A stretch of 64,000 nt of DNA from a virus. The notes under the pieces are model-generated. The model was not told where the DNA came from and did not search any database. It saw only the letters and a program-made list of their open reading frames with translations. How positions within the stretch are numbered: position 1 is the stretch's first letter; the number at the start of each line of letters is the position of its first letter. Shown one piece after another: positions 13,083-62,970 of this stretch. Location of the stretch: IMG/VR virus record IMGVR_UViG_3300035698_012088, positions 64,001 through 128,000 of that record. One strand, 5' to 3'. A program made the translations under genes and the position numbers.

Positions 13083-14141
13083 ATGATAGCGGTATCAGCC
13101 GACTTGCACCTTGGACACTGTCTGAGAAAGAGTATCAAAGAGCTAAAAAATGATAGTTATGTTTTTTTGCAAATGTTTCTGGACAAGCTACTACAATTGA
13201 GGAGGCAGTACAATATCACCTCACTTGTGTTAGCTGGAGACATTTTCGATAAAAGAACCATTGACGGCAAAGCACTCAAAAACTTCACAAACTTTATAGA
13301 CCAACTACACCAAGTAGGAATCAAGACTTATACCATACAAGGTAATCATGACAAAGGTGAGATATCCATTCCCGATATTGAAGGGGGATATAACCTGCAT
13401 GACACTCTATTGGAAATTGATGGACACACTCTTTTTGGCCTTGACTCTATGTCAGCTGAAGACCTTAAAGAGAAGTTGACCACAGTTCCTAAATGTGACT
13501 TTCTTGTACTCCACGCACCATTTCAACACCTATTGGGGTTTGAAGGTGCCTATGATATATCACTTGAGGATATCCCAAAACAAGCCAAGAATGTACTTGT
13601 AGGGGATGTTCACACAGTTGATATCACTAAATTCAAACACAAAGATGGATACTGTCTCAGCCCAGGAGCACTATTTCCTTGTAACATATCTCAAGGAAAC
13701 AACCACGGTTTCTACCTCATTGGAGGGAAGGAGCCCGAGTTTGTGAGACTGGATGTTAGAAAGGTATTCATACATAAAATATACACTAAAAAAGACATCG
13801 ACCCGATTAGGAAAATATTGAAAGATAATATGAATGAGCAGATGAAACCAGTAGCAGAGCTTCGATACCCAGTAGATATGATGGAGTCAGTCAACAAATT
13901 GAAGACTGATTTCATCTCTAAGTATATCCTTTTAGATAAGGTGTGCTCAAATCTAGATGGAGTTAACTCTCTAGCAGAACTGGATGAAGTATATGATAAA
14001 GCCACTCTATCAGAATTGCTTAAATTTGCAATAGATGGAGAGAAAGAACCCGAAGTATTTACATTTCTAAAAGAACTATTAGACTCAGATAGTCCAGGAG
14101 AGATTATCGAAACAAAACTAGAGGAATACGCAGTGACATGA
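13083..14141 (+). CDS. sbcD: SbcD/Mre11-like metallophosphoesterase nuclease
   Basis: ADLHLG, AGDIFD, GNHD and GDVH motifs. Confidence 0.9.
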   Translation: MIAVSADLHLGHCLRKSIKELKNDSYVFLQMFLDKLLQLRRQYNITSLVLAGDIFDKRTIDGKALKNFTNFIDQLHQVGIKTYTIQGNHDKGEISIPDIEGGYNLHDTLLEIDGHTLFGLDSMSAEDLKEKLTTVPKCDFLVLHAPFQHLLGFEGAYDISLEDIPKQAKNVLVGDVHTVDITKFKHKDGYCLSPGALFPCNISQGNNHGFYLIGGKEPEFVRLDVRKVFIHKIYTKKDIDPIRKILKDNMNEQMKPVAELRYPVDMMESVNKLKTDFISKYILLDKVCSNLDGVNSLAELDEVYDKATLSELLKFAIDGEKEPEVFTFLKELLDSDSPGEIIETKLEEYAVT

Positions 14142-14935
14142 CAGTTAATGAAGTTTTACGTAAAACAAGATATGTGTCAGATACCCCATGCAGAGTATGG
14201 GTACCCGGCTCGATAAATTCAAATGAAGTAGAAGCCCTATCCTATGGGTATTCCAGAAACTACGCCGTTGTAGTATATAGATCAGACCCTTATACCTTAA
14301 AAGCTATAAGAGCAGATATATCAGATTTTATTAATAGAGATCACCCTAGTGTACATGAGATTCCTGTATCCAGGGCAGAAGAAGTACTAGGGTGGCCAGA
14401 TTTCTTTAGAGTACAGGTATTAAATAAAGAGGCACATATAGTAAACCTTAGACCTTCAAAGCAATTACCTGTTGTAGGTAAATATGTAGGCTTTTCCTTC
14501 ACCTATGGGTCAGTCCATGAGGGCCGTCCATTTTTCATGGTATTGAGACAATATAAGAATGGCAAGATAAAAATAGAGACTTACTTACCTAGGCAGAAAA
14601 TGCCTGTGTTGCCAGGGGGCAAGAAATTGTTGGGTTATTCCTATGTTAGTTCCCAGATAGATGAAGAAGTATTTACTCAGGTAGAAGAAGCTATAACAGC
14701 TAAGCTACCAGAGTATGGGCTCTTTATAGACCAAAAGATTAACAAGTTCAAAGGAACTAGAGACAATAAAACATTTTACAACTTTATACATGGCCCAGAT
14801 ATGGTAAGAGCTAAACCCGGTGATCACTATTATGCACGTGGCAACAGATATCCTTATGTGGTGGTTCCTATCTTAGAGGCATCAGAAGAAGTACAAGACA
14901 AATTATCTTTACAGGTAGTATGCGGTGAGATATGA
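14138..14935 (+). CDS. hypothetical protein inserted between sbcD and sbcC; carries C-terminal tag (QVVCGEI)
   Basis: 265-aa ORF overlapping the sbcD stop. Confidence 0.7.
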   Translation: MTVNEVLRKTRYVSDTPCRVWVPGSINSNEVEALSYGYSRNYAVVVYRSDPYTLKAIRADISDFINRDHPSVHEIPVSRAEEVLGWPDFFRVQVLNKEAHIVNLRPSKQLPVVGKYVGFSFTYGSVHEGRPFFMVLRQYKNGKIKIETYLPRQKMPVLPGGKKLLGYSYVSSQIDEEVFTQVEEAITAKLPEYGLFIDQKINKFKGTRDNKTFYNFIHGPDMVRAKPGDHYYARGNRYPYVVVPILEASEEVQDKLSLQVVCGEI

Positions 14936-14958
14936 AGAAATATTCAAGGAGGTAGATT

Positions 14959-17004
14959 TTGATTCCAGTAGAGTTACAGGTGACCAACCTATGTCAGTAT
15001 AAAAAGTATAACCTTAAATATAAACCAGGGATCACCGGCATTGTAGGCAATAATGGAAAAGGCAAATCCAATCTCTTAGACGCAGCTCAGTTCTTTGCTA
15101 TCACGGGGTTAACACCTCCTAAGTACACAAAGTCTGAGTTGTTGAGATGGAAGAGTAACTCCGGACATACAGTGTTTAAGTTCCTACACAACAATATCAA
15201 CTATAGATTATCTAGAAATATCCACGACTCCAAAACAGTCTTATCTTGGAAAGACTCCAAAGGTAACTCCCAAAGTATTAAGAAACTGGCTGAAGTGAAT
15301 GATGAGATGGAAAAGATCTTAGGCATGAACTTCACTATTTTTAGAGAGACTTGTTTTGTAGGTCAGGGGTATCTGTCTAATATTGTAGATATGGCTCATT
15401 CCCCAAGGATGGCCTATTTCCAGAAGATCAGCAATGTAGCTAAAGCAGAGACTATTAGAAGCTCTCTACAAGGCTACTTAAATAAGATGGTAGTGTATCC
15501 AGATAGAACTGCAGATATAGCTGAATTGAGAGACATAGTAGATCAGAGTAAAATTAGACATAGTAGTAATTTATTAGCCATAAAAGAATTAGAGATAGAA
15601 TTAGATAGATTTAATGAGATCCTTCCTATGGCAAAAGATGCTATAAAAGGAACTACAGAGAAAGAATATAAAACTAAGATAAAAGATATAGATAGAAAGA
15701 TAGATGCAGTAGAAAAAGAGATGAAAGGGTTACAGAATAAAATAAGAAGACTTAAGATTTCAGAAGTAACTCCATTGACTGAAGAAGAAATAAAGCTAAA
15801 GCAAAAGTTAATAGAGAAAGAGAGTATAGAAAAAGCACTTAAAAAAGAACAAATAGATTTAGCTAAACATATGACAACAAAACCTGAAGTTAGCGAAGAT
15901 GAAGAAAAGTTAACAACAGATCTTAAAGAGGTAAAAGATCAATTAAGGGTCTTAAACTTAAAAACAAAGGCATCAGAAGATGGCACATGTCCTGTTTGTG
16001 AATCCAATTATAATACACCTACCTCGGCGTTCAGTAAAGATCTCGACTTCTGGGCAACTGCGCTCAGGGAAATGGAAGGGCGTAGGGAACACTTTGACAC
16101 TAGTTCCAAACTATTATCAAAGTGGAGTTATATCAAGGAAGACTTTAATAGACGTTGCGGGGATCTCTTGCAAAGAAGTAGAGAAATCACTCCTAAAGGA
16201 GGAAAAGCTTTTACAAGAGAGGAACTCAATACAAGAGAAGAAGCCTTAAGCAGCTACTTAGATAAACTTAAGCAGAAGCAAGAGATCAACTTAAAAGTAA
16301 ATAAAAAGAGAGTAGCATTAACTACATATAAGACTGAAAAGGTAATGGCTGAAAAGGAAACTTTTTTCCCAGAGGCTTTGAGAAAATCTGCAGAGATACA
16401 AATAGATACACATCAAAAATATGAAGATAGAGTAGCAGCTAAACTATTAGAGCAGCAAGAGCTATTAACAAGAGTAGAGGAATGTGAAAAACAGATCCTC
16501 AAGTATATGACTGAACAGACCTTAGCAGACAACATAAAGAAAGTAGAAGCTCTCTTTGAAAGAAGCAAAGAAGTTCTACATAGAGAAAACCTCCCCAAGC
16601 TGGCCATGAGGAGAATGTTATTAGCCCTAAATACTAAACTGGCCTTCTACCTAGAACAATTTCAAACTGTATTCACAGCACAGATAAATGATCAATTTGA
16701 TTTCATCTGTGATTTTGTAAGTTCCAATGACAACAAGAAATCTGCTAGAGCTTTATCTGGTGGACAAAAAGTAGCATTGGCCTTGGCATTCAGGTTTGCT
16801 TTAACAGATGTGCTGAGTTCTTCAGTACCTATACTCATCCTGGACGAACCAACAGTCCATCTTGATGAGGAAAACATCCAATGTGTCAGGAATGTAATTC
16901 TAGAGGTAAGGAGACATACTGAAAAGGGTATGTATGTTCTCATAGCAACACATGAACCCATTTTGTACTCAGCATTTAGCAGAGTAATTGATGTAGGAGT
17001 ATAA
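14959..17004 (+). CDS. sbcC: SbcC/Rad50-like SMC ATPase
   Basis: GNNGKGKS Walker A, coiled coils, CPVC zinc hook, LSGGQ signature, LDEPT Walker B, H-loop ATHE. Confidence 0.92.
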   Translation: MIPVELQVTNLCQYKKYNLKYKPGITGIVGNNGKGKSNLLDAAQFFAITGLTPPKYTKSELLRWKSNSGHTVFKFLHNNINYRLSRNIHDSKTVLSWKDSKGNSQSIKKLAEVNDEMEKILGMNFTIFRETCFVGQGYLSNIVDMAHSPRMAYFQKISNVAKAETIRSSLQGYLNKMVVYPDRTADIAELRDIVDQSKIRHSSNLLAIKELEIELDRFNEILPMAKDAIKGTTEKEYKTKIKDIDRKIDAVEKEMKGLQNKIRRLKISEVTPLTEEEIKLKQKLIEKESIEKALKKEQIDLAKHMTTKPEVSEDEEKLTTDLKEVKDQLRVLNLKTKASEDGTCPVCESNYNTPTSAFSKDLDFWATALREMEGRREHFDTSSKLLSKWSYIKEDFNRRCGDLLQRSREITPKGGKAFTREELNTREEALSSYLDKLKQKQEINLKVNKKRVALTTYKTEKVMAEKETFFPEALRKSAEIQIDTHQKYEDRVAAKLLEQQELLTRVEECEKQILKYMTEQTLADNIKKVEALFERSKEVLHRENLPKLAMRRMLLALNTKLAFYLEQFQTVFTAQINDQFDFICDFVSSNDNKKSARALSGGQKVALALAFRFALTDVLSSSVPILILDEPTVHLDEENIQCVRNVILEVRRHTEKGMYVLIATHEPILYSAFSRVIDVGV

Positions 17005-17005
17005 T

Positions 17006-17416
17006 ATGTCATTATCCGTAAAAGAGCAAGAGAGAGTTGATGAGTTCCGAGATGAATTCAATATAGAAGATGTGTTCTCAGAGGAAGAGATCTTAGAAGC
17101 AACTGGGGACATGATCAATAAGGCTAACTGGTCAGACAGCATCATAGATGATTTTAAGGAAGTGATTAGAGGTTTCTTTGAGTGTGATGACCTATATGAT
17201 GAAGAGGTATTGGGAGAGTGGGTTGGAGACAACATGTCCATCACAGAGGTCTTCAGAGATAATAATATTGAAGAAGCTGCATTGAACCTTGGGTTAGTAA
17301 ATAAAGAGGATGGTTTAGAAAATATATTTGATGTAGAAGAAATAGAAGAGTTTGCCAGCAGTGTTTTAAACATGGTAAATCCCTCAGATATAGTGGATGA
17401 CCTGGAGGAAGATTAA
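17006..17416 (+). CDS. highly acidic repeat protein, candidate DNA mimic
   Basis: about 43 D/E versus 8 K/R in 136 aa; internal repeats. Confidence 0.5.
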   Translation: MSLSVKEQERVDEFRDEFNIEDVFSEEEILEATGDMINKANWSDSIIDDFKEVIRGFFECDDLYDEEVLGEWVGDNMSITEVFRDNNIEEAALNLGLVNKEDGLENIFDVEEIEEFASSVLNMVNPSDIVDDLEED

Positions 17417-17727
17417 TGAGCTGGAGTAAAGCAGGAGTAGGAGATGAGATACAGAAATCCTATCCTACTATGACATCAGGTATATGGAAGATACGATACT
17501 TTATATATAAACCTTATAATATAGGCACAGTCTGGGTACATGCATTTGAAGTGGAAGCTAATGATAGACATTGGATGACCTTAAAAAAGACTGAAGTGCC
17601 AGGTGGAGACTTAAGGAACTGTGTTCCCTATGTTATAGGTGGCCACCCTGGATTTGAAAGATTTCTAGAAAGAGTAGACAGATATGAAAACTACATGGAT
17701 CTTGAGATTGTTTGTGAAGAACTGTAG
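17416..17727 (+). CDS. paralog family A member 1 (C-terminal tag IVCEEL)
   Basis: PTM..G.W.I.Y...AF...FERFLERVDRYENY.DLEIVC shared with the next gene. Confidence 0.75.
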   Translation: MSWSKAGVGDEIQKSYPTMTSGIWKIRYFIYKPYNIGTVWVHAFEVEANDRHWMTLKKTEVPGGDLRNCVPYVIGGHPGFERFLERVDRYENYMDLEIVCEEL

Positions 17728-18037
17728 AGGAACATAATATGAGTTTTAGTATCCTTGGAGCACAGGATAAAACACAAAAGAAAGATCCTACTATGAAAGT
17801 GGGCCCTTGGAGTATTGTGTATGAGATATATCAACAATATAACCGCCCAACTAAATGGAACAGGGCATTTTATGTCTGTTATAAAGGTAATATAAAAAAT
17901 AGATATGATAGAGAAGATATGACTGACTACGGAGTAGAAATCCTTCCTTATCTTTTTGTATCCCGTAAAAAGCTATTTGAAAGATTTCTAGAAAGAGTGG
18001 ACAGATATGAAAACTACACGGATCTTGAAATTGTTTG
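17652..18037 (+). repeat. 63-bp direct repeat (17652-17714 and 17975-18037, 3 mismatches)
   Basis: atttgaaagatttctagaaagagt(a/g)gacagatatgaaaactaca(t/c)ggatcttga(g/a)attgtttg. Confidence 0.9.
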
Positions 18038-18050
18038 CAGAACATTATAG
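17739..18050 (+). CDS. paralog family A member 2 (IVCRTL)
   Basis: clear similarity to 17416..17727. Confidence 0.75.
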   Translation: MSFSILGAQDKTQKKDPTMKVGPWSIVYEIYQQYNRPTKWNRAFYVCYKGNIKNRYDREDMTDYGVEILPYLFVSRKKLFERFLERVDRYENYTDLEIVCRTL

Positions 18051-18058
18051 GAGTAGGA

Positions 18059-18334
18059 ATGAATAAGAAAGACACACCAAAGCTCAGGCTGACTCCTCCC
18101 ACCTTCAAGGTAGGTAAATGGTCAATTAGGTATTCAGCTAGAAAATATAGACAAAGGGCTTTTAGCCTTAATCACCCAAGTCTTAATCATAGATGGGTAA
18201 TTTCTAGAGGTGAGTATAAAAAAGAGTTGTTCCCTTATGAAGTAATGATGGATGAGGGATTTGCAGAATTTCTAAAAAAAGTCAAAGAGTACAATAGAGG
18301 TATGGACCTTAAAGATATTGTACAGGAACTGTAA
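18059..18334 (+). CDS. paralog family A member 3 (IVQEL)
   Basis: PTFKVGKWSIRY...AF...F.EFLKKV; ATG 18059 with AGGAG RBS. Confidence 0.7.
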   Translation: MNKKDTPKLRLTPPTFKVGKWSIRYSARKYRQRAFSLNHPSLNHRWVISRGEYKKELFPYEVMMDEGFAEFLKKVKEYNRGMDLKDIVQEL

Positions 18335-18418
18335 AGTAGAAGAACGACTTATGACACAAACTAGAGATAATACTACTTAACTTGTCGCACTAGAACAAGT
18401 TAGATACAAAGGACTAAA

Positions 18419-18808
18419 ATGAGTATTACTGTATCAGAAGAGAAACAAAAACTAAGAGAGATGGCAACCAATATGAGGGGTGTAGAACCTGTTCAGCATT
18501 CCCTAGTGACTATGAAAGTAGATTCCCACATATTAACTTATACTCCTTATATAGACTGGACCAAGACACAGTGGGATTCTAAGGCAGGAGAGATGAAATA
18601 CACGTTCTCTACTATATTCACTGTCATATTTTTTAAGAACAAATCTTATGAGTATCGCCCAAAGTGGACCAAAGAGAATTATGAGAAAAGTGAAGGTAAG
18701 TGCCTTCCAGACATCTTTGTAGAACATAAGAGATTCAAATCTTTTATGGAGAGAGTAGATAAGCTCGATAACCTACTGATGTTGCAAGCTACATTCAATG
18801 AAATCTAA
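18419..18808 (+). CDS. paralog family A member 4, divergent (TFNEI)
   Basis: TMKVD...LP....F.SFMERVD pattern. Confidence 0.6.
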   Translation: MSITVSEEKQKLREMATNMRGVEPVQHSLVTMKVDSHILTYTPYIDWTKTQWDSKAGEMKYTFSTIFTVIFFKNKSYEYRPKWTKENYEKSEGKCLPDIFVEHKRFKSFMERVDKLDNLLMLQATFNEI

Positions 18809-19115
18809 GGAGCTAAAATGCTTAAAGTTGGAGAAATCACAGACTTAGAAGGAGGCGGAGCTAAACTTCAAGTAGAGTTAAATGGAAGGGATGAGCAAGT
18901 TATATTGTACCACGGCATGGAATTATTGGTAGAAGACTATAATAAAACTGCGGACCAGAAGGTTAAGGTATTAATGCCAGAAGACATAGATGCTTTATAC
19001 GGAGATACTGAAAAGCCAAAGATGAAAACTTTTGAGATGGATGAAGAGCTGTACACCAGCTTAATTCAAATCTCACTAGTAGACATTATTACTAACTCTA
19101 TTAAGGAAATGGATA

Positions 19116-19583
19116 ATGAATCTGAATTTGGAGAAGAAGCTGGCTGAAGAGTTCTCTTTCATGAGACATTATGACTCTTCGTCAAACCCAATTATCGAGC
19201 ATACTCCTTACCCCGCTGCCTGTAATGATGGGTGGTTTGGCCTCATTCATGAGATATGTGCCTTTTTAGAGAAAGAGGCTAAAGAGGTAGAGGTACTTCA
19301 GATCAAGGAGAAATTTGGATACTTATGCTTTTATTTCAGTGCAGAGTCTAAGAGAGATGATATAGACTTATTTGATGAAATAGGCAAGATAGCCAATAGA
19401 TCATCAAAAACCTGTGAATTCTGTGGAGACACTACTACAGCTAAAATAAGAGGTGGTGGTTGGATACAGTGCAAGTGTAATAAATGTCAACATACCCAGT
19501 TAATGGAGAAAGTTACGGGGAGACTAGAAGGCTGTGCAAGAAGAAAAAGAAACTACGGAACAGTTGTGCCAAGTATGTCATGA
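19116..19583 (+). CDS. conserved phage hypothetical protein with zinc ribbon
   Basis: DGWFGLI..QIKEKFG.L.FY..CEFCG..C..C pattern common in phages. Confidence 0.6.
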   Translation: MNLNLEKKLAEEFSFMRHYDSSSNPIIEHTPYPAACNDGWFGLIHEICAFLEKEAKEVEVLQIKEKFGYLCFYFSAESKRDDIDLFDEIGKIANRSSKTCEFCGDTTTAKIRGGGWIQCKCNKCQHTQLMEKVTGRLEGCARRKRNYGTVVPSMS

Positions 19584-19791
19584 GAACACCGTAGATCTAC
19601 ATGTTCCTATTGGAGGAGATGAGGTCTCTGGTGTTTGTGAAGACTGCTTAGCACAGATGATGAATCCTAAACCCTATAAGAGAGAATTTAAGAAGATAGG
19701 TAGAAACGATCTTTGTCCTTGGTGTGCCCATGAGGGAGAGTCCAAGAAGTGGAAGAAATGTGCTGAACATCAACATCATTTGGAGAGATAG
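19534..19791 (+). CDS. small zinc-finger protein with SEC-C-like motif
   Basis: CQVC..CEDC then KIGRNDLCPWC....SKKWKKC. Confidence 0.6.
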   Translation: MQEEKETTEQLCQVCHENTVDLHVPIGGDEVSGVCEDCLAQMMNPKPYKREFKKIGRNDLCPWCAHEGESKKWKKCAEHQHHLER

Positions 19792-20289
19792 ATGCCAGAG
19801 AAGAATCTGATTGAAGAAAAAGTAAAGATAGACACTGAGACGTTACAACATCTTAACACTATAGTACATAAATGGTTACAGAAGAAGGAATCCAAAGCGT
19901 CCATGAAGAGAGATGTGGATAGTATCTTAGATAAATGGTTTGAGAAGATTGTGTCAAGAGCAATGGGGATAGATGAGTCTTGGTCTAGACCTGAATTAAA
20001 AAAAGATAGCCCTTTGGGGATTCATGTGAATAAACATCTTGATGGACTCATAGATGCCAAACTCACAAAGAAGATGGTTGAAGACGCCATCCCTGATCTT
20101 ACAAAAAACAAAATTAGTAAAGCTATATCTAAATATGTAGGGGATCAGTTTCACTATAAAATAGAACAAAGGGTCAGGGAACGCCTTAATGATAGAATGG
20201 ACGATGAAATAGAGAAAATCTTTGATGAAGTGACAAAAGGTGGAGCCCAGACCTTAGTTGATTTTATAAGTATAAATAAGGAGCTATAG
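19792..20289 (+). CDS. hypothetical protein
   Basis: 165-aa ORF with GGAG RBS. Confidence 0.65.
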   Translation: MPEKNLIEEKVKIDTETLQHLNTIVHKWLQKKESKASMKRDVDSILDKWFEKIVSRAMGIDESWSRPELKKDSPLGIHVNKHLDGLIDAKLTKKMVEDAIPDLTKNKISKAISKYVGDQFHYKIEQRVRERLNDRMDDEIEKIFDEVTKGGAQTLVDFISINKEL

Positions 20290-20619
20290 TACTCCCATGG
20301 AACTAACTCTTCTTGTAGGCCTACCTGGTTCAAAAGGAAAAGTAAAGCAAATAGAGAGGTTCAAAGAAAATGGTTTTACAGTTCTTAAAGAGGGTGATGT
20401 TTTATCTCCGTCAAACAAAACCAAGATATTGGATATAAACCCTTGGTTATGCCTTAAAAGCATATTGAAGAAGAACCTTCATCTATATAATCTCCAGTTC
20501 CCCGGAGTTAGAGTTCATGTTGTATACTGCAAAGATGATACCCCAGATGAAGTACCTTACTTCACTAGACAATTAAAAGAAAGGTATGAGATACCCCAAT
20601 CTCTTATGATTAGAAAAAA

Positions 20620-22065
20620 ATGATAACAATAGGTAAGTTTGGACATGTAGTTTCTGTGAATCCTTGGGTTCCTCAATTGGCAGAAGAATTGACCTGCTAT
20701 AGGCAGATCACTACTCCTAATTGGAGATCAAAGTCTGGCTTGGATTTTAGTTATCAAGCAGAACCTTTGTACTCTTTAGAAAAGAGACCTGATGGGGGAA
20801 CCCAAGGATTAGTGTTTGGGGGCCTCTTTGTGAGGCTTGTTAAAAAACTTAAAGAGTTAAATATAAAATATACAGTGAAGGACTACCAAGCACCCCTTCC
20901 AGATCCTGACTTTGATAGGCTAGCTAATATGCTAAGACCTAAGCAGAATAAGATCCTGGCTGCAATATGTTCCTCACATAGAGGCGTCATTGTAGCTCCT
21001 CCTGCTATAGGGAAGACATATGTACTAGAGCAACTATGTAGAGTATATAAGAATACTAAGATTCTAATAACCACTCCTAAAAAGGAGGTACTTAGAGATA
21101 TCTATGATAGAGTCACTATTTCAAATCCAAGGAAAAAAGTTATACAAGTACATGCTACTGCGTCTTTTGATCCCGATGCTGATGTTGTAATATGCTCATC
21201 TAAATCGCTTCACAAAGTGCCCCCAGACTGGGCCTCCCTACTTCTATTTGATGAAGTCCATGGAGCAGCAGCACCAAAGATTTCTAAGGTTCTATCTCAG
21301 TTCACAGGCTGTAGGCGATTTGGTTTCACAGCCTCCCCAAGTGGAAGATCAGATGCATCTGAGATATACATTGAGGCCCTATTTGGACCTGTTATATGTG
21401 AGGTTCATTATACCGAGGCTGAGGGCGATAAAACAGTAGCCCCAATAGAAGTAGTTATGCTTGACATGGATAACATAGCAGAGATACAGAAGAAGAACCC
21501 TATAGCTAAAGAGAGGCACAATATCTGGAGAAATAGGACAAGGAATACTTTAATAGCTGATGCTGCACACACCTTTGACAAAGAGGAACAGATTCTCATT
21601 CTGGTGAAGACAATTGAACATGCTTTACATTTGAGATTGATGCTTCCCAACTACACCTTAGTACATGCTGGGATGACACAGGATAGATATGATCAATTCA
21701 ATAAGATGAACCTACTTGAGGTAGATGATCTTCTGAAACCTGACATAGAGCAGTTCAAGAAAGATTTCAGAGATGGGGATCTAAGACATGTAATAGCCAC
21801 TATGTGCTGGAGAGAAGGGATTGATTTCCCAGACCTTAGTATTCTGATTAGAGCAGATGGATTAGCAGGAGCTATCCCCGCTATTCAGATAGGTGGAAGA
21901 CTATCTAGAGTGTCTAATGGTAAAAAAGAAAAGGGACTTATAATTGACTTCAATGATAAATTTAGTGAGACCTTCCTAGCAAGAAGTAAAAAAAGAATGG
22001 CACATTATAAAAAACAAGGGTGGTCAATTAGAAGAACCACAAATATTAAAGGACTAAGTCTCTAA
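20620..22065 (+). CDS. superfamily 2 DNA helicase (UvsW-like)
   Basis: APPAIGKT, FDEVH, FTASP, EGIDFP and QIGGRLSR motifs. Confidence 0.9.
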   Translation: MITIGKFGHVVSVNPWVPQLAEELTCYRQITTPNWRSKSGLDFSYQAEPLYSLEKRPDGGTQGLVFGGLFVRLVKKLKELNIKYTVKDYQAPLPDPDFDRLANMLRPKQNKILAAICSSHRGVIVAPPAIGKTYVLEQLCRVYKNTKILITTPKKEVLRDIYDRVTISNPRKKVIQVHATASFDPDADVVICSSKSLHKVPPDWASLLLFDEVHGAAAPKISKVLSQFTGCRRFGFTASPSGRSDASEIYIEALFGPVICEVHYTEAEGDKTVAPIEVVMLDMDNIAEIQKKNPIAKERHNIWRNRTRNTLIADAAHTFDKEEQILILVKTIEHALHLRLMLPNYTLVHAGMTQDRYDQFNKMNLLEVDDLLKPDIEQFKKDFRDGDLRHVIATMCWREGIDFPDLSILIRADGLAGAIPAIQIGGRLSRVSNGKKEKGLIIDFNDKFSETFLARSKKRMAHYKKQGWSIRRTTNIKGLSL

Positions 22066-30401: not shown

Positions 30402-30447
30402 AAACTTGTTGCACATATAAAATTGGGTGAATTCGGTGGAAGCCAAC

Positions 30448-30476
30448 TTGACAATCTGCTTAGTAACTTGTATGTT
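30448..30476 (+). promoter_or_regulatory. sigma70 promoter inside intron 1, likely driving the HNH gene
   Basis: TTGACA-17nt-TATGTT. Confidence 0.55.
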
Positions 30477-30645
30477 ATTAAAGGCAGATGGTAATACCGA
30501 GCCAAGCTTAAGCAGCAATGCTTTTGAAGGTGTAGAGACTAACTCCCGACTCCCTAGAGGAGAGTAATGGAGACAAGAGCGCCCAGCCCCTAGAAATAGG
30601 GTGATGATATAGTCCAGACTTACACAATGTCAAGGAGATAATATA

Positions 30646-31428: not shown

Positions 31429-31459
31429 TATAAAGAGACTACGGAGAATACGATTTTCG

Positions 31460-31542
31460 TTCAAGGCTTAGCAGCTGATGGAGCAAAATACGCCCTATGG
31501 TATTTATACTTAGCTGATTATAAGATGGTTAACTTTATCCAT
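31460..31542 (+). CDS. polA: polA exon 2 (83 nt), not in the ORF track
   Basis: encodes (F)QGLAADGAKYALWYLYLADYKMVNFIH, the conserved QG.AAD region up to the His of motif C. Confidence 0.9.
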
Positions 31543-31591
31543 AATAGACACGTCTCTTTCTAATGCTATATTAGTATAGGAAGGAGACATC

Positions 31592-32227: not shown

Positions 32228-32350
32228 ACATTGTGGATGTAAAACAGGGTGAATTGCTGGAAAATCCTAAAGCCTTTTGTACTATAGTGGTTGCACTTTC
32301 AAATAGGGTGCAGTACATTATCACTAAGTAACAATCAAAAGGATATTAAA

Positions 32351-49915: not shown

Positions 49916-51088
49916 ATGGACGTTAATCACAACACCCTAGCAAAGCTTATTCACAAGTCATATTACACCACAATCCCTCTCTTTGTTAAAGGGACTACTG
50001 GTATCGGAAAATCCCATACTATCAGAGAACAGGCAAAGATCATTGCTGCAAAGGAAGATCGGGAACTGGTAGACTGGAATTACCTTAGCAAAGAAGAGCA
50101 TATCGCTTTGGCCACTGAGCCTGATAAGCTGAAGAAGCTTTTTATCCTTGCTGATGTAAGAATCAGTCAGATGGATCCCGGTGATCTCCGTGGTCTGCCA
50201 TTCATGGTAACACATGACATGGACGTAGCCAACAACTCAAAAATCTCTGACAAGAGGTTTGCCCGGTATGTAGAGTGGAGTCCTATGGCTTTGTTCCAGT
50301 GCATGTCACAGCATGAGTGCAAAGGTCTTCTCTTCTTTGATGAGATGAACTTGGCCTCCCCCGCTGTACAGGCTGCTGCATATCAGATCATCTTGGATAG
50401 GTGCATTGGTGAGATTTCCCTCTCCCCTGGTGTTTCCGTCCTTGCTGCAGGTAATAGGGTTGAAGATAGAGCTAATGTATTCGAGATGGCAGCGCCCCTC
50501 AAGAATAGGTTCTCCCATATTAACTTAACACCCCCCACCATCAAAGAGTGGACTGATTTTGCCATTAAGGCAGATGTGGACTCTAGGATCATTACGTTCC
50601 TGCAGTTCAAGCCCAGCCTCTTGATGGCAGATCTGAGTAAGTTGGCTAAGTCCAAGACTGATGCCTTCCCTACTCCCAGATCTTGGGTATACTGCTCAAA
50701 ACTTATCAGGGACGAGAAGGGCATGGACTTTGTCCACACTCTTGCAGCCACGGCCATTGGAGATGGACCTGCCCTAGAATTTAAAGCATATGTCAAGCTG
50801 AATGATACCTTGGACATTAACGATCTCCTGAATCATCCAGAGAAGGTGAAGAAGATCGGGGCTTTGGACCTTAAGTGGTCCTTTGTGTCCGCAGTGTCTG
50901 AGATGTACAGAGCTGACAAGAAGCTCCTTACAAAGGTTATTGAAGTGTGTCCTCACATGGACCCAGACTTCAGCGTTAACTTACTTAGAATGATGAAAGC
51001 ACATAACAAGACATCCTTTGTCACAGCCCTGACAAAGTCTCCTGAGTGCATTAAGATCGTAAAGCGGTACGCCAAGTACTTGGTGTAA
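49916..51088 (+). CDS. MoxR-like AAA+ ATPase
   Basis: GTTGIGKS, DLRGLP, LFFDEMN, AAGN, PLKNRF and PTPRSW motifs. Confidence 0.9.
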   Translation: MDVNHNTLAKLIHKSYYTTIPLFVKGTTGIGKSHTIREQAKIIAAKEDRELVDWNYLSKEEHIALATEPDKLKKLFILADVRISQMDPGDLRGLPFMVTHDMDVANNSKISDKRFARYVEWSPMALFQCMSQHECKGLLFFDEMNLASPAVQAAAYQIILDRCIGEISLSPGVSVLAAGNRVEDRANVFEMAAPLKNRFSHINLTPPTIKEWTDFAIKADVDSRIITFLQFKPSLLMADLSKLAKSKTDAFPTPRSWVYCSKLIRDEKGMDFVHTLAATAIGDGPALEFKAYVKLNDTLDINDLLNHPEKVKKIGALDLKWSFVSAVSEMYRADKKLLTKVIEVCPHMDPDFSVNLLRMMKAHNKTSFVTALTKSPECIKIVKRYAKYLV

Positions 51089-51289: not shown

Positions 51290-52534
51290 GTGGAAAGTAA
51301 ATTGTCCCCAATTGATAAGATTATGAGGGCTAAGATTAAGCTTCAAGATGAGAAGCCGTTCTTCAGCTTTCTGATTATGCATCTCAATATTAAGAGAGAT
51401 GATGTGAAGGTACCCACAATGGGAGTGGATGCCAGAGGAAACCTATTTTATAATGAGTCTTTTATCGAGACCCTCTCAGAATCCCAACTCAAAGCAGTCT
51501 TGTGTCACGAAGTAGGTCACATTGTCTTTGAGCACTTAATGAGATATCAGGGCTTTGATCCTAAGGTTAAGAACATAGCAGATGACATAAAAGTTAATGA
51601 TGTACTGGTAGATGATGGAATCACTGATCTCCCCCAAGGAGGTCTGATCCCCAATAGACACCAGATCAATATTGGCGGGGTTAGTGTGGACAATATCCAT
51701 GAAAAGACCTCAGAAGAGATCTATACAGAAATCTTTAAGATCAATAAGTCAAAGCTTCCAAAGGGCTTTGATATCCATTTTCCAGGCACTGGGGATGAAG
51801 ACGGAGAAGGAGATGGAGAAGGAGAGGGTGATGGAGAAGGCAATGACGGCCATACCCCAGGCATGAAGGGTCTCTCTGAACAAGAGGTCAAGAATAAATG
51901 GAAAGAAGTTATCACCCAAGCCGCGACAATTGCTAGACAGAGAGGTACTCTCCCTGCTGGTATTGCCATTGCTATGGATGACTTACTTGAACCTAAGATG
52001 GACTGGAAGTCGATGTTGTACAATTTCATCACCCAGGATATCATCTATGACTTCAATTATATGAGACCACATAAGAAATCTCACTCCACGGGTTTCTACT
52101 TCCCTCAAATTTACAAAGAGAATATTGATCTAGTAGTACACTGGGATACTTCAGGCTCCATGCAGGGAGATACTCAGGAATGCCTAGATCAAATGTATGG
52201 GCTACTTAATGCCTTTAACAATATCAGAATTGACTGGGTCATCTGCGATGCAGCTATCCAGGGACATTTTGAACTGAATAGAGAAGATAGACTTGATCTC
52301 ACAAGCTTTGATATCAGAGGTTGGGGTGGAACATCCCATATCCCTGTGGTGGACTGGATCAATGAAAATAGACCAAGCTGTAGACTTTTCATCTCCATGA
52401 CAGATGGGTATTCCGATATCCAAAATTGTTATGATGAGCTACCTCCTTGTCACAAGATTATCTTGCTGCCTAAGGACTATGCTGGGATGAGAGAGCAACT
52501 AGAGGACTATGGTACCTGCATAGTTATGGAATAA
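51290..52534 (+). CDS. DUF2201-type metallopeptidase-like plus VWA domain protein (MoxR partner)
   Basis: HEVGH zinc motif, G/E/D linker, MIDAS DTSGS, GGT and TDG. Confidence 0.88.
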   Translation: MESKLSPIDKIMRAKIKLQDEKPFFSFLIMHLNIKRDDVKVPTMGVDARGNLFYNESFIETLSESQLKAVLCHEVGHIVFEHLMRYQGFDPKVKNIADDIKVNDVLVDDGITDLPQGGLIPNRHQINIGGVSVDNIHEKTSEEIYTEIFKINKSKLPKGFDIHFPGTGDEDGEGDGEGEGDGEGNDGHTPGMKGLSEQEVKNKWKEVITQAATIARQRGTLPAGIAIAMDDLLEPKMDWKSMLYNFITQDIIYDFNYMRPHKKSHSTGFYFPQIYKENIDLVVHWDTSGSMQGDTQECLDQMYGLLNAFNNIRIDWVICDAAIQGHFELNREDRLDLTSFDIRGWGGTSHIPVVDWINENRPSCRLFISMTDGYSDIQNCYDELPPCHKIILLPKDYAGMREQLEDYGTCIVME

Positions 52535-53089: not shown

Positions 53090-53413
53090 ATGACAGATAT
53101 CGTAGCCCAATATTCCATTACAGATACAACTAGGAACCAAAAGGTTGTCTTCACATTAAAAGATGTGACAGAAGACACAACCCTAACAATGCATATAGAT
53201 ATCACCAAAGCGTCAACCGGTGTCTCTATAATGGATAGAACGTGTAAGAACTGGCCGCTCAAGAAAGCGCTTAAAACAATAGATACCTTAAGGGGCGTAA
53301 ATAAAAAGATGTACTCCCCTCAGCTAAATATGAGAGGCCAGGTAGAAGTTCTTAAGGATATATCTGAAGAAGATAGAGTAGAGATGGTAGCAATGATAGC
53401 GAGCAAGGAGTAA
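53090..53413 (+). CDS. paralog family B member 1 (tag lacks terminal Leu)
   Basis: A.YSI.D...K.VFT..YSPQL..RG..E..KD.S shared with the next gene. Confidence 0.75.
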   Translation: MTDIVAQYSITDTTRNQKVVFTLKDVTEDTTLTMHIDITKASTGVSIMDRTCKNWPLKKALKTIDTLRGVNKKMYSPQLNMRGQVEVLKDISEEDRVEMVAMIASKE

Positions 53414-53415: not shown

Positions 53416-53745
53416 ATGGGCAAAAAGAACGTGACAGCAAAGTATTCTATATCAGATAAGAATAAGAATAAGAAAGCGGTATTTACTTTCTCATATGTTC
53501 CCGGGGAAACTAAGGTTTCTGTAGGGATTGAGATCTCCAGCCTGGACGATGATAAGACCCTGCTGGACAGAGAAGTATCTGGATATCCTATCTCCAGAGT
53601 ACTTAAACTGGTAGATAAGTTCAATAATTCAGAAGTAGTGTATTCTCCTCAGCTCCACCTTAGAGGCGAATCAGAAATTATTAAAGACCTTAGTCAAGCA
53701 GACAAAGACCTAATGGCAGCCAGTGTGGTATGTGAGGAGCTATAA
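53416..53745 (+). CDS. paralog family B member 2 (VVCEEL)
   Basis: paralog of 53090..53413. Confidence 0.75.
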   Translation: MGKKNVTAKYSISDKNKNKKAVFTFSYVPGETKVSVGIEISSLDDDKTLLDREVSGYPISRVLKLVDKFNNSEVVYSPQLHLRGESEIIKDLSQADKDLMAASVVCEEL

Positions 53746-54518
53746 TGTGTTTTGGACGAGGCATCTTGGGAACAGTGTTCTCTAAGTTTGGAACAGGTAC
53801 AGGTGATGTAAAAGCCACCTTGCCTGACCCTGAGTTCTTTTCCCATTCTGAGTACTATATGGATAACCTAGAAGCCGTAGAGAGCACTAAAAATACTATA
53901 AAGAATACACAGAGATATACAGGAATATTCAATGATATGGTCCTGGGCATGGGCATATTCACAACAAAGAAGACTGTGGATAGTGTAGGTGTAACATCTG
54001 CTAAGTATATGCATCACCAGCGCACATTTGACACCGGCTTCAACCAAGGTACCTTCTCAAGTGCCCCAGACCATGAGAAGTTAGTTAGAGCAATGGCCCA
54101 TAAGCCTGACTCTAAAGGCGCCCAGATGGAGTACTATAAGGTTAAGAAGAAATCTAAACCTTTAGGACATGTGCATTTAGAATGTAAGACATGGGTCTAC
54201 CAGGATAGTGACTTTAAGGAACACACCCTTAAGCTTAACCTGGTGAAGTCCAAGAATAGCCCTGATCTTGAAGAGGGTACACGAGATGCATTACTCATGC
54301 TTCTACAGTACTCTTCTGAAGACACAAAACATTATGGGATATTTAGAGACCCTTTGGGCTATTACTTTAGAGGCCTCTATTACTTACTTTACTCCCAGGC
54401 AATGCACTCTATGGCGTATATGAATAGCCTAAGAGTGTTCCCTACTAAGCTAGACTTGAGCTTACCTAATAAGTCTAATGACTACCTAACAGTATTACAA
54501 AGCGTAGAACAGCTATAG
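53745..54518 (+). CDS. hypothetical protein with C-terminal tag (SVEQL)
   Basis: 257-aa coupled ORF. Confidence 0.7.
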   Translation: MCFGRGILGTVFSKFGTGTGDVKATLPDPEFFSHSEYYMDNLEAVESTKNTIKNTQRYTGIFNDMVLGMGIFTTKKTVDSVGVTSAKYMHHQRTFDTGFNQGTFSSAPDHEKLVRAMAHKPDSKGAQMEYYKVKKKSKPLGHVHLECKTWVYQDSDFKEHTLKLNLVKSKNSPDLEEGTRDALLMLLQYSSEDTKHYGIFRDPLGYYFRGLYYLLYSQAMHSMAYMNSLRVFPTKLDLSLPNKSNDYLTVLQSVEQL

Positions 54519-54530
54519 AAAGAGAGGATT

Positions 54531-55571
54531 ATGTATTTTTCTGAACGCGGCCTAGAAGCCGTAGCATGTGATGATAACAGTTTCTTATATCTTGTAAAAG
54601 ATTTATTCTTGGATGAGGAGGACGCTATAGAAGAAAGACACTCTGTATCTGGCTCCGGTGAGACCAAGGGTACAAACTATACAGGATATATATCTAACAT
54701 ATATAAAAGGGATATGGAGACTGTATGTAATAGTAAACTGATAGCCTATGCAGTATTCTTCAATAAAACCTTAACTGGAATGAAGTTTGGATTATCTGAA
54801 GAGAAGTGTCTTTTCTTAACTACTGAGGGAGAGGGTGGAAAAGAGGAGACCCTAGGCATCTCCTCCGTAGTTTGTGAGCATAAGGAAACATATGAATCTC
54901 CCTCAATATATGCAGTAGTCCAAACACCTAAAGGTAAATATAAGGGGATCATGGTACATAAATCCCAGACCCCTAAAGATAAAACATCTGCGCAGTTGTA
55001 TGCGGTTTTGAAGGGAGATTATGGTATAACTAGTAATCAGGGCTTCAATATCTCAGATAATACCAAATCCAATAAGGTAATTATGTTTAGAGAGACAAAG
55101 GATATCTGGACAGCAGTATATCAGATAAAAAGAGCATATGAAACCTCTCCTAAAAATCTCTTAAGTGTAAAATGTAGTAAAGGTCTAGTACCTAGAATAA
55201 GGAGAGCTATGGAAAAGGAAACTCCAGTCAACGGAGATGTCATTTGGACAGGAGTATTTGATATTCCTGAGAAGAAAGATGCACTAACAAGTCACCGATT
55301 TATATTTAGCATTGCAGAAAAAGATAATAACTTTAGCTATTATGAAGTATCCCATAGAACTAAAGGTAAACATAAGAAAATACAGACTAATACCTTTATG
55401 AAGGTATATAAGGGGATGAGAGTTATGGATAAACAAACTGAGAATTTAACAGACTCACCGGAGAACAAAGTACTCCTGGCCTTAGGGGTAAGACTTGTAG
55501 CAGAGTCTAATGACATGCCTGAAAACCTTAAGGATATTCTAAAGACAAAGCTGGTAGTAGAGGAGCTGTAA
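54531..55571 (+). CDS. hypothetical protein with C-terminal tag (LVVEEL)
   Basis: 346-aa ORF with GAGG RBS. Confidence 0.7.
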   Translation: MYFSERGLEAVACDDNSFLYLVKDLFLDEEDAIEERHSVSGSGETKGTNYTGYISNIYKRDMETVCNSKLIAYAVFFNKTLTGMKFGLSEEKCLFLTTEGEGGKEETLGISSVVCEHKETYESPSIYAVVQTPKGKYKGIMVHKSQTPKDKTSAQLYAVLKGDYGITSNQGFNISDNTKSNKVIMFRETKDIWTAVYQIKRAYETSPKNLLSVKCSKGLVPRIRRAMEKETPVNGDVIWTGVFDIPEKKDALTSHRFIFSIAEKDNNFSYYEVSHRTKGKHKKIQTNTFMKVYKGMRVMDKQTENLTDSPENKVLLALGVRLVAESNDMPENLKDILKTKLVVEEL

Positions 55572-61448: not shown

Positions 61449-61750
61449 ATGAGTAACGTTCAGTTGGGAACCGCTGTAATAGCGGGAATAGTATATATAT
61501 ATTGGGAGTAATAGGACACACAATTCAATTTATGCATGAACAAGAACCTATACATGGATATTTCAAAAGAAAGATAAAATCTAAATTAGATGTTATATAC
61601 AGATTACTCTCTTCTATACTGTGGCCTTTATTCCAACTGTTCTGCCTCCTCATGTGGATGACTTCTAGAGCTAGAAAGTTATTTTCTAGTTTCTGGAAGT
61701 TACCTTTGACTCATGATCACGACCTATCAGATGTAACGGAGGAACTATGA
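61449..61750 (+). pseudogene. paralog family C membrane protein frameshifted in a (TA)5 run
   Basis: ATG 61449 frame stops after 20 codons; deleting one TA from 61492-61502 fuses it to ORF 61502..61750 (ends VTEEL), giving a two-TM protein like its neighbours. Confidence 0.6.
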
Positions 61751-62073
61751 AACCAGAAGCAACAGAAGTCTTAAGGGCAATTTTCATAGCAGCAGGAGGT
61801 ATAGCATATATCCCCATACTTTATGCTACATACATTTATCACAGAGATGAATCCCATATCTTTAATCTCTTTGAAGAAGATGAAAACTTTCCCTATCCTT
61901 GTAGCAGGGTAGAACTTCTACTTCTCTATATAGGAATAGGTTTCTGGCCTATAACTTATATTGTAGGATTATCTATAATGGGAACTGAGGTACTTAAAAA
62001 GAAACTTAAATCTTTTAGAAAACTCCCTATGCATAGAGACAGAGATCTAGAGAAAATTGCAAAGGCCTTATAA
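61747..62073 (+). CDS. paralog family C two-TM membrane protein (IAKAL)
   Basis: two hydrophobic helices, FWP, SFRKLP..RDRDL. Confidence 0.7.
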   Translation: MKPEATEVLRAIFIAAGGIAYIPILYATYIYHRDESHIFNLFEEDENFPYPCSRVELLLLYIGIGFWPITYIVGLSIMGTEVLKKKLKSFRKLPMHRDRDLEKIAKAL

Positions 62074-62117: not shown

Positions 62118-62405
62118 ATGATTTGGATTATGGCTACCATGGATATCTTTTGGCCAGTTTGTTTAGCAATATATGCAATTGGAGAATTCCTTCTCCTTTG
62201 GCATTTTCTAGGAGATAAAAACTTATCCTGGGATACTAAAGAAGAGATGATGTGGGATTTAGCTACAAGAATAATTTGGCCTATCACCTTAGGAGGGTGG
62301 GCAATACATGACTGGACAGCCTCATTACACAAGAGAGTATGGGAGTTTAAGCAGACACCTTGGAAGAGTATGAGAGATGCAAAAATCGTAGCAGAAAACC
62401 TGTAG
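62118..62405 (+). CDS. paralog family C two-TM membrane protein (VAENL)
   Basis: IWPIT, EFKQTP...RD pattern. Confidence 0.65.
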   Translation: MIWIMATMDIFWPVCLAIYAIGEFLLLWHFLGDKNLSWDTKEEMMWDLATRIIWPITLGGWAIHDWTASLHKRVWEFKQTPWKSMRDAKIVAENL

Positions 62406-62577
62406 GAAATAACATGACTAAAGAAGAAGCAGAGAAGAACCTTAGATCTCAGTTGAATATGGGATCCTATACAGTGGAAGACGCCTCTGTCTTTACAGAG
62501 GGATACATAGCAGCACTATATGATGCAGAGACTATCACTTGGGAAATACAACAGTATCTCTTGGATACCTTTGGGAT

Positions 62578-62970
62578 ATGACTCCAGAAGAAGAATCCCC
62601 CTTCCCTTACTCTGATGACCCTAGCAGAGATTCTTATAAGGGTAAGAAGAAGATAAAAATTACTTCTTACCTAAACCCTAAAGACGATATGGGAGTAGAA
62701 GAATACTTAAATATGCTTAACAAAGCCATTGCCTTGGCAGAAGAATCCGGTCTTACAGAGTTAACAATGAGCTGGTGCGGTGAAGATTACAATATAGAAC
62801 ACTCTATAGTTGGAGTTAGAGAAGAGACTGATGAAGAACAAGCTAAGAGACTTGAGCACACTAAGAGGTATTGGAAGAACAAGTATAAAGGCTATGTGAG
62901 AGACACTGCTTTTTTTGAATCACCTAGAGGGCAGCAGACCATAGCAGCAGTAGTAGCAGAGGAGCTTTAA
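62578..62970 (+). CDS. hypothetical protein with C-terminal tag (VVAEEL)
   Basis: ATG overlaps the upstream stop; REETDEEQAKRL motif. Confidence 0.65.
   Translation: MTPEEESPFPYSDDPSRDSYKGKKKIKITSYLNPKDDMGVEEYLNMLNKAIALAEESGLTELTMSWCGEDYNIEHSIVGVREETDEEQAKRLEHTKRYWKNKYKGYVRDTAFFESPRGQQTIAAVVAEEL

Follow-up and report, generated by a model that had tools for sequence, protein, structure and literature searches.

The subject of this study is a short C-terminal peptide, or tail, found on many small accessory proteins of a phage represented by the IMG/VR virus record IMGVR_UViG_3300035698_012088 (159,412 bp, about 82% complete as estimated by CheckV). The stretch analysed, hereafter the window, consists of the 64,000 nucleotides (nt) at bases 64,001-128,000 of this record. 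The tail, with the consensus [D/E]-x-Φ-Φ-[V/C/A]-E-[E/N]-[L/I]-COOH in this genome (Φ, hydrophobic residue), is shown to be real, anchored at the protein end, carried by unrelated proteins, variable between genomes and present only in phages of one clade of a MoxR-type AAA+ ATPase. It is a protein-level feature, of which this genome has a weaker and more degenerate version. A protein-level address with a common reader is its probable explanation. The best explanation as a whole, an address tail selected at the protein level and most likely read by the MoxR ATPase together with a zincin metallopeptidase fused to a VWA domain, is given a little less than an even chance.

Genes were called over the whole genome by a greedy longest-ORF rule, which yielded 210 open reading frames (ORFs); errors in start codons are immaterial to the counts, because C-termini depend on stop codons alone. 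The first 100 kb of phage T4, treated with the identical pipeline, served as the outside control. Paralogues were defined by BLAST and each family was weighted as one. In other phages, 10 kb on either side of each MoxR gene was sampled. The loci, numbered with the prefix L, include the relatives anchored on the large terminase TerL (L001-L003), the contigs with the closest homologues of the MoxR ATPase (L006-L010) and 80 more loci obtained from IMG/VR by a profile scan with the ATPase alignment.

The tail and its carriers in the phage genome

A first-pass annotation, made from the sequence of the window alone, had quoted 15 C-termini as sharing the tail, and all were found as quoted when the ORF ends were checked. 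The starts of two of these ORFs are ambiguous (18035/18059 and 62539/62578), which leaves their ends unaffected. Further members are an additional ORF of the window (19792-20289, …SINKEL) and proteins encoded outside it, for example those ending …IMMGEL and …TVEEL. The carriers in the window, with lengths in amino acids (aa), are as follows.

14138-14935 (+): ORFan, 265 aa, between the SbcD-like and SbcC-like genes, ending …LQVVCGEI
17416-17727 (+): family A protein, 103 aa, ending …DLEIVCEEL
17739-18050 (+): family A protein, ending …DLEIVCRTL, with the terminal Leu present and E-E lost
18059-18334 (+): family A protein, alternative start at 18035, ending …DLKDIVQEL
18419-18808 (+): family A protein, 129 aa, ending …LQATFNEI
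19792-20289 (+): additional tail-like ORFan, 165 aa, ending …DFISINKEL; absent from the first-pass list
27812-28708 (+): ORFan, 298 aa, between the primase and PolA genes, ending …NLQEILETAMVVEEL
49179-49907 (+): ORFan, 242 aa, directly upstream of the MoxR gene, ending …VELAIMEL
53416-53745 (+): ORFan, 109 aa, ending …ASVVCEEL; its GAGGAG is also the Shine-Dalgarno (SD) sequence of the next gene
53745-54518 (+): ORFan, 257 aa, ending …VLQSVEQL; separate downstream SD for the next gene
54531-55571 (+): ORFan, 346 aa, ending …NLKDILKTKLVVEEL; SD of the next gene within the tail codons
60107-60547 (+): ORFan, 146 aa, ending …LDLILYNL, a weak version without Glu; next gene 48 nt away
61502-61750 (+): small membrane protein, start probably at 61532, ending …KLPLTHDHDLSDVTEEL
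61747-62073 (+): membrane protein paralogous to that at 61502, ending …RDLEKIAKAL, a basic variant of the tail
62118-62405 (+): small membrane protein, ending …DAKIVAENL
62578-62970 (+): ORFan, 130-143 aa, ending …SPRGQQTIAAVVAEEL; SD of the next gene within the tail codons

Among the 210 ORFs, Leu is the last residue in 44, against 17.6 expected (p=1e-8), and Glu occurs at position -2 in 32 and at -3 in 34, against 15.5 expected at either position. Weaker excesses concern Leu at -8 and Val at -5, and positions -4 to -6 of the C-termini are enriched in hydrophobic residues. After weighting of paralogues the terminal Leu stands at 28.5 against 14.5 (p=3e-4), and its excess is located in the non-virion two-thirds of the genome. 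None of these patterns is enriched at the C-termini of T4. Tail-like ends were counted in 20 of 184 proteins (10.9%), against a rate of 3.2% in internal windows of protein sequence, and in 12.7% of those of the non-virion part (internal rate 3.3%). The pattern is anchored, ending at the last residue (offset 0) in 20 proteins as against 3-10 at offsets 1-8. The carriers thus make up about one-ninth of the proteins, and nearly all are fast-evolving and of unknown function. A two-component expectation-maximisation motif model anchored at the C-terminus recovered only a broad 'charged helix' class, hardly above its null (141.5 against 121±8.5), and was dropped as too insensitive.

A cause at the DNA level was rejected as a more than minor source of the terminal Leu. 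Leu precedes the stop codon at only about 1.3 times its overall frequency when all six frames are considered, and the excess in shadow ORFs consists of unselected zinc-finger genes and poly-Ser alternative frames. These zinc-finger genes, which also inflate the raw count of terminal Leu, lie outside the window (genome 135,123-143,821, window +71,123 to +79,821) in an array of about 24 mini-genes encoding proteins of 56-158 aa. All of them end in VTCxxC followed by a 10-residue basic amphipathic helix and Leu-stop, e.g. CKKLLLNHILEKL, the helix having the heptad spacing of the acidic tail with the opposite charge. A similar family, ending SWRRKxLL…, is present in L008.

The window represents the replication and nucleotide-metabolism region of the genome, with core genes for SbcD-like and SbcC-like proteins, a helicase, a DnaB-like helicase, a primase, PolA and a UvsX-like recombinase, and further for NrdD with a LAGLIDADG domain and a GMP-reductase/IMPDH-like enzyme. 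Many ORFs without a Pfam or PHROG family are interspersed among them. The suggestion of protein-level selection made in the first-pass annotation is borne out. The tail stands on proteins among which no relationship is detectable, and the recognisable core enzymes are without it: the SbcC-like protein, helicase, DnaB-like protein, primase, PolA, NrdD and UvsX-like protein all end differently, as had been noted. Scans of ten tagged proteins against Pfam and PHROGs gave no match. Capsid loading, one of the roles suggested earlier, is unlikely, the tail being not significantly enriched in the virion module.

The earlier figure of about 15 unrelated families was an overcount, and about 9-10 families remain after the grouping of paralogues. 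The proteins at 17416, 17739, 18059 and 18419 are paralogues by BLAST (family A), as are the membrane proteins at 61502 and 61747, with which that at 62118 is grouped by eye only. The ORFan at 49179 is homologous to that at 54531 (Z=6.4), and 14138 has a possible paralogue just past the window end (genome 130330-131166; Z=3.2). The proteins at 27812 and 54531 have dissimilar bodies and only their last 16-22 residues (NLxxILxTxxVVEEL) in common. Descent of all carriers from a single paralogous family with a conserved C-terminal helix was considered and rejected, since their bodies are dissimilar except within small sub-families; profile comparison with hhalign, after trimming the last 20 residues, found nothing above 20% probability. 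Beyond the genome, a family A profile searched against 1.8 billion representatives recovered its own four proteins and five weak multi-stretch matches in longer proteins, which were taken as spurious. No homologue of the protein at 27812 was found among 5.8 billion proteins, and that at 54531 has no usable neighbour in the ESM Atlas, its own model having a pLDDT (predicted local distance difference test score) of 0.37.

The AlphaFold2 (AF2) model of the protein at 17416 has four strands and a C-terminal helix at residues 78-102 (mean pLDDT 66), and the family A tail is the end of this long helix (residues 78-102, pLDDT 64-81). In many carriers a polar linker containing Pro or Gly precedes the last 9-16 residues. 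In the small membrane proteins, that at 61502 among them, the tail is preceded by a basic juxtamembrane stretch; by the positive-inside rule, it should face the cytoplasm. A natural tail-less or degenerate control pair is present as well: the gene at 53090-53413 is a tandem paralogue of 53416-53745 (33% identity over 105 residues); its end, …MIASKE, is shorter by one residue and has no terminal Leu, and AAGGAG in it forms the SD of the next gene.

Tail versions in other phages and the limits of a gene-packing origin

No orthologue of a tagged protein was found in the databases searched, and therefore the gene neighbourhood was examined instead. The comparison is built on two genes of the window.

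49916-51088 (+): MoxR-type AAA+ ATPase, 390 aa (phrog_1297, ATPase); candidate reader of the tail
51290-52534 (+): zincin metallopeptidase (DUF2201_N, PF13203, E=7e-31) fused to a VWA domain (DUF2201, PF09967); second candidate reader or processor

A regular expression derived solely from the present genome (Φ-Φ/small-x-[DE]-Φ-stop) is observed 9 times here against 1.1 expected and once in T4 against 0.9. On the independent contigs L009 and L010 it occurs 7 times (p=4e-8) and 9 times (p=6e-11), respectively, against 0.3 expected on each. In L009, nine of about 41 proteins end in …[LV][LV]x[DE]I (such as QLLVEDI, QVLVNDI and EMVMEI); in L010 about a dozen ends of the type …MIMAEEV, …VVAEEV, …MLMLNDL and …RVLEEL occur; and in L006, 8-9 of 29 proteins end in …[MFL][DE]Y. 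The carriers of these three loci are all BLAST singletons (7/7 families in L009, 10/10 in L010). Among the loci with the closest ATPases, proteins ending in Leu or Ile number 34 of 47 in L012, 30 of 56 in L018 and 21 of 39 in L024, and Lys is, as usual, the commonest last residue in the loci with distant ATPases. In the closest MoxR loci, 20-44% of the small proteins end in a version of the tail specific to the genome, as listed below.

L012: ExELFLEIL
L018: KDEVMVELL
L014: KDxxMVEx[IL]
L026: KDEIIMExL
L024: LLLEKL
L031: QKIVDNL
L038: xHΦΦMEII

With the tails trimmed, the carriers fall into almost as many families as there are proteins (families/proteins: L012 18/20, L018 21/22, L014 14/14, L026 11/11, L024 9/9, L038 8/8); the exception is L036/L037, in which 17 of 22 carriers are one paralogous family.

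In a maximum-likelihood tree of 65 ATPase sequences (quick search, midpoint root), two clades are separated with 100% support, and tail-positive rows number 13 of 31 in clade A, to which the ATPase of the present phage belongs, and 0 of 34 in clade B. Tail-like ends occur in 184 of 1084 proteins (17.0%) at the clade A loci, against an internal-window rate of 3.4%, in 21 of 1040 (2.0%, internal rate 3.1%) at the clade B loci and in 3.0% (internal rate 3.3%) in T4. The pattern ends at the last residue in 184 clade A proteins as against 22-49 at offsets 2-8. The pooled logo has Glu or Asp at -3 in 78% and Leu or Ile at -1 in 86% of the ends, two positions partly enforced by the filter, and also Lys at -9 and Glu at -7, which were not selected by it. 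The MoxR and VWA-zincin proteins are the only families common to all 15 tail-positive loci within 10 kb on either side, the next best being present in at most four.

The E-x-L tail is absent from the TerL relatives L001-L003. L001 and L007 are the same relative phage; four small proteins of L001 (12484-13973) end in …YLL, …CLL, …RLL and …DLL, and three genes upstream of MoxR in L007 (8218-9984) end in …AIDLL, …AVEAL and …SVKAL. These …LL and …AL endings may be a non-acidic version of the tail missed by the criterion. In L002 (2178-10161) about 20 small genes on one strand, most of them overlapping the next gene by TGA/ATG, have basic ends rich in Tyr, Lys and Arg (…GRYKR, …RRRYKS, …YKKNYKH), which look like a different family or tail type.

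On a rival view the tail would have no role in the protein at all, as a by-product of gene packing (the ribosome-binding site (RBS) GAGGAG being read as E-E, with ATGA and TAATG overlaps), hidden paralogy and selection by eye. Several counts in this genome speak for such an origin. Four of the 15 listed genes (53416, 54531, 61502 and 62578) have an SD within the tail, GAGGAG or GGAGGA in the last codons being that of an overlapping next gene; the count of four given in the first-pass annotation is correct. The 15 proteins reduce to the 9-10 families described above. For genes whose end holds no SD, the family-weighted similarity of C-terminal 8-mers shows no excess (2.5 against 2.7), and in a threshold test an excess appears only when at least one partner has an SD in its end. 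Two further counts also weigh against an address in the protein: an SD-like word occurs in the last 15 nt of 13 of the 20 tail genes here, against 46 of 164 others, and the Glu codon at -3 of the tail genes is GAG in 9 of 11, against 0.44 genome-wide.

The same comparison, extended to other ends and other genomes, largely refutes a gene-packing by-product. Other ends that overlap an RBS in this genome read K-E-T-x (…KETL), K-E-K-R or L-E-E-D and do not have the hydrophobic triplet, and the enrichment persists where the SD is separate and downstream or the gaps are long, tails being found before gaps of 44-84 nt and longer. The enrichment test against RBS overlap that had been called for gave the same result: among ends without the SD of the next gene, family-weighted, [DENQ][LI]-stop is found 13.4 times against 3.8 expected (p=1e-4) and Φ..[IV]...[LI]-stop 7.7 times against 0.7 (p=6e-6). 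The tails of the relatives use GAA, GAT or GAC at -3, with SD-like words not in excess (5 of 22 tail genes in L018 against 9 of 32 others; 2 of 9 in L024; 0 of 6 in L031), and in L018, L014, L024 and L031 the Glu at -3 is encoded by GAA about as often as by GAG. The codon variety cited earlier as a sign of protein-level selection is seen in the relatives, which mix GAA and GAG; in this genome E-E is partly dual-coded with the RBS. Conservation of amino-acid classes across varying codons is not expected of an RNA signal, and no hidden paralogy was found after trimming. The RBS confound is real but partial, and a wholly by-product origin is very improbable.

Candidate readers and comparison with known systems

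The recurrence of genome-specific versions on unrelated proteins is what a common address with one reader predicts. The docking address proposed in the first-pass annotation is favoured to that extent, binding to a hub being inferred; its suggestion that the hub might be a phage AAA+ protein has gained a concrete candidate in the MoxR ATPase, which belongs to a shared pair and is linked to the tail by co-occurrence only. From the sequences and their neighbourhoods, the MoxR/VWA-zincin pair is tentatively proposed as the reader. In the ATPase, the Walker A and Walker B motifs, the Asn of sensor-1 and the Arg are conserved, with G26, G29, G31, K32, S33, D142, E143, N180 and R198 invariant among 45 homologues, and its homologues occur in 694 phage records. 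Its AF2 model (pLDDT 91) has the MoxR-family ATPases NorQ (9qh4, 9qh6, 9qhd) and CbbQ (6l1q, 5c3c) as top Foldseek matches in the PDB (template modelling score by target 0.60-0.67). Its sequence does not reach Pfam AAA_5, a family (PF07728) that many homologues do carry, and searches of PDB sequences with the ATPase and VWA-zincin profiles found nothing close. In the VWA-zincin protein the HExxH motif (H73, E74, H77) and the metal-ion-dependent adhesion site (MIDAS; D286-x-S288-G-S290, T371, D372) are invariant in six orthologues. Its gene adjoins the MoxR gene or lies within about 1.5 kb of it in L006-L010, and the tail genes at 53416-54531 sit just downstream of the pair in the window. To our knowledge, no role has been assigned to the MoxR/VWA-metallopeptidase pair of phages.

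In the proposed mechanism, the tail would supply the final two turns of an acidic amphipathic helix, whose last residue has to be a Leu or Ile with its carboxylate free. The phage would fit the tail to fast-evolving, lineage-specific accessory proteins, both cytoplasmic ones and the cytoplasmic ends of membrane proteins, and one common partner would handle the tagged proteins as a group. By analogy with NorQ-NorD, docking would take place either on the ATPase ring, through the hydrophobic extreme C-terminus, or on the MIDAS site of the VWA domain, through the acidic tail; remodelling or release of the tagged protein, or its clipping by the zincin domain, would follow. A complete tag-and-reader system, in which a MoxR ring and zincin-VWA protein read a genome-specific ΦΦΦ-E-x-L/I-COOH code on 10-44% of the small accessory proteins, is possible, if somewhat doubtful; the tagged proteins would in that case be remodelled, activated or clipped as one group.

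In the NorQ-NorD system, the hydrophobic free C-terminus of NorD (…L-V-A) is the main anchor on the NorQ ring, at the post-sensor-1 loop, and its last two residues are needed (Kahle et al. 2026, PMC13036017). An ATPase of the NorQ type can thus read a free hydrophobic C-terminus, because deletion of the last two residues of NorD abolishes co-purification with NorQ (PMC13036017). The likeness lies in the ATPase model, closest to NorQ/CbbQ, and in the adjacent VWA partner with an intact MIDAS. The docking tail of NorQD is, however, on the single VWA partner, whereas here it is on tens of unrelated putative clients; the VWA-zincin proteins end unlike the tail (…YGTCIVME, …YGEVINIV); and the tail, unlike the C-terminus of NorD, is acidic at -2/-3.

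The vWA domains of vWA-MoxR systems have been proposed to capture peptides, and zincin peptidases to act on small proteins that diverge rapidly and of which just a C-terminal peptide is conserved, the peptide types described being FxSxx, RxD, an acidic run (at least four acidic residues) and an FtsH-associated one (Kaur, Burroughs, Iyer, Aravind 2020, PMC7159879). Like the zincin/FxSxx-COOH module, the present system combines a MoxR ATPase, a vWA protein, an HExxH zincin and many fast-diverging small proteins with a conserved C-terminal peptide. The FxSxx-COOH systems are bacterial conflict systems with one or few precursors, whereas this is a phage system whose carriers include proteins of 250-350 aa and membrane proteins; the peptidase, a separate gene there, is fused to the VWA domain here; and the motif ΦΦΦ-E-x-[LI] is none of the four described types. 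By analogy, the system may work like the zincin/FxSxx-COOH module without being a member of it.

Short peptides that serve unrelated proteins are known from other settings. The C-terminal tails of T4 gp43, gp33 and gp55 dock on the gp45 clamp, and the acidic tails of T7 gp2.5 and gp4, ending in Phe, dock on gp5. One short peptide on several phage proteins thus leads to one hub, in T7 with acidic residues, a terminal hydrophobic residue and a free carboxylate as in the present tail. The T4 and T7 tails are, however, on two or three core proteins, whereas at least 20 ORFans carry the tail here, and the tail segment is helical and amphipathic whereas replisome tails are a disordered acidic run; a clamp-binding or T7-type replisome tail was rejected, as the core replication and transcription proteins lack it. 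The peptides that direct cargo into bacterial microcompartments and encapsulins are short amphipathic helices, joined by a linker to one end of otherwise unrelated cargo proteins, and there too a pattern rather than an exact sequence is recognised; strict anchoring at the last residue, present here, is not a feature of microcompartment peptides. No shell or encapsulin family appeared among those window proteins that were scanned against Pfam or PHROGs, no search aimed at them having been made. C-terminal degrons (ssrA …LAA for ClpXP/ClpAP, non-polar ends for Tsp/Prc) resemble the tail in that a few terminal residues and a free carboxylate mark unrelated proteins for one AAA+ or PDZ machine. 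They differ in being added or exposed conditionally, whereas the E-x-L tail is encoded on a tenth of the proteome. Literature searches found no description of the tail as a signal, in agreement with the first-pass annotation. The system is a member of no known case compared, since motif type, tens of unrelated carriers and VWA-fused peptidase all differ.

A number of observations weigh against an address tail read by the MoxR/VWA-zincin pair. In this genome the tail is degenerate and of low penetrance (11% of proteins), its genes are scattered over about 55 kb and not clustered on the MoxR pair, and the family A paralogues retain the terminal Leu or Ile and not E-E, conservation here being judged among paralogues only. 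Eighteen of the 31 clade A rows, L007 and L008 among them, are without the tail by the criterion, and L007, the nearest ATPase in the tree, has only the …LL and …AL endings. The association of MoxR with the tail amounts to one deep split in the tree, confounded by phage ancestry, and is a matter of co-occurrence only. The N4-like phage PEV2 has a homologous ATPase/metallopeptidase pair and no shared tail. No MoxR column clearly separates tail-positive from tail-negative loci, two weak columns having emerged from a scan of the tail clade and the post-sensor-1 loop. Uncontrolled co-folding of the MoxR, VWA-zincin and family A alignments gave a score of 0.00, which counts neither for nor against binding.

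An address label read by a component of the host, such as an AAA+ protease or adaptor for which the tail is a C-degron that keeps early proteins short-lived, a PDZ protease or some other hub, would make the MoxR pair a bystander; genome-specific versions would then track different hosts. The tails do differ between genomes, as expected if the hosts differ, many phages with the MoxR pair are without the tail, and hydrophobic-ending C-terminal degrons such as ssrA-LAA and that of MuA are well known. L006, where the tails are of the type …[MF][DE]Y, has genes of its own for ClpP and a Clp ATPase beside them. At L006:9372-13965, a ClpP of 195 aa and an 809-aa Clp/ClpB-like double-AAA+ ATPase are found a few kb from the MoxR/VWA-zincin pair, and are an alternative candidate reader in that phage. 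The restriction of the tail to one MoxR clade counts against a host reader, no ClpP gene was found in this genome (about 82% complete), and bacterial C-degrons known to us end in non-polar or basic residues and are not acidic at -2/-3. A host reader is on these grounds considered rather unlikely.

The tail may instead have no common reader and be a structural or self-association helix, packing on its own fold, oligomerising or pairing with basic helices, and reached by convergence. Its modelled position in family A, at the end of one long helix (78-102), and the heptad-like spacing of its hydrophobic positions (-1/-5/-8/-12) are consistent with this. The zinc-finger mini-proteins, about 24 in number, end in CxxC, a helix of the same spacing with basic residues, and a terminal Leu, and would be the candidate pairing partner. 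Acidic residues and a free carboxylate at the C-terminus of a helix oppose the helix dipole, and stability alone would for that reason not select E-E-L. Structural helix ends would, moreover, not be uniform within a genome, differ between genomes and span unrelated folds including membrane proteins; T4 and the clade B phages have as many small helical proteins and no tail; and the strictness with which the pattern is anchored at the last residue suggests that the free end is what is recognised. A purely structural role is accordingly regarded as distinctly improbable.

Neighbouring genes and biological significance

A megablast search with 16 kb of sequence gave no match among known phages. 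Even the nearest known phage polymerases share only about 25% identity with PolA, whose peptide patterns found no match among viral contigs; relatives of TerL, 40-62% identical, occur on metagenomic contigs that reach about 200 kb. In two of the TerL relatives (L001 and L003) the SbcD-like and SbcC-like genes are adjacent, with no counterpart of 14138 between them, and the helicase gene is adjacent or nearly so (compare window 13083-20289); here the stretch between SbcC and the helicase holds nine small ORFs (17006-20623), of which five bear a tail. The tagged genes, which have no counterpart in L001-L003, are insertions.

Two of the core genes may themselves carry insertions. In the PolA ORF (561 aa, in the region 28718-34467) the match to the Pfam polymerase model breaks off at position 271 of 381, and the ORF is followed on its 3' side by genes for HNH (30646-31428) and GIY-YIG (31592-32227) endonucleases and an unassigned ORF of 394 aa (33283-34467); insertions of homing endonucleases may have split the polymerase. 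NrdD, the anaerobic ribonucleotide reductase (44995-48606), has 1203 aa, with the LAGLIDADG domain at residues 647-710, and its orthologue in L007 has 868 aa; the domain is probably an intein.

No other pool of proteins of unknown function is as large as that encoded by the accessory genes of phages. If a single label marks from a tenth to nearly half of the accessory proteins in a group of phages, these proteins could be handled experimentally as a class, and the label could help to isolate the reader, or could be removed to see what becomes of all tagged proteins. A reading of the tail by the MoxR/VWA-metallopeptidase gene pair would, if true, be the first function for this pair and would reveal a private phage channel of proteostasis or timing, evolving together with its tags. 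A tag of this kind, short, portable, specific to one genome and supplied with a reader of its own, might also be used as an orthogonal tool for protein targeting or degradation.

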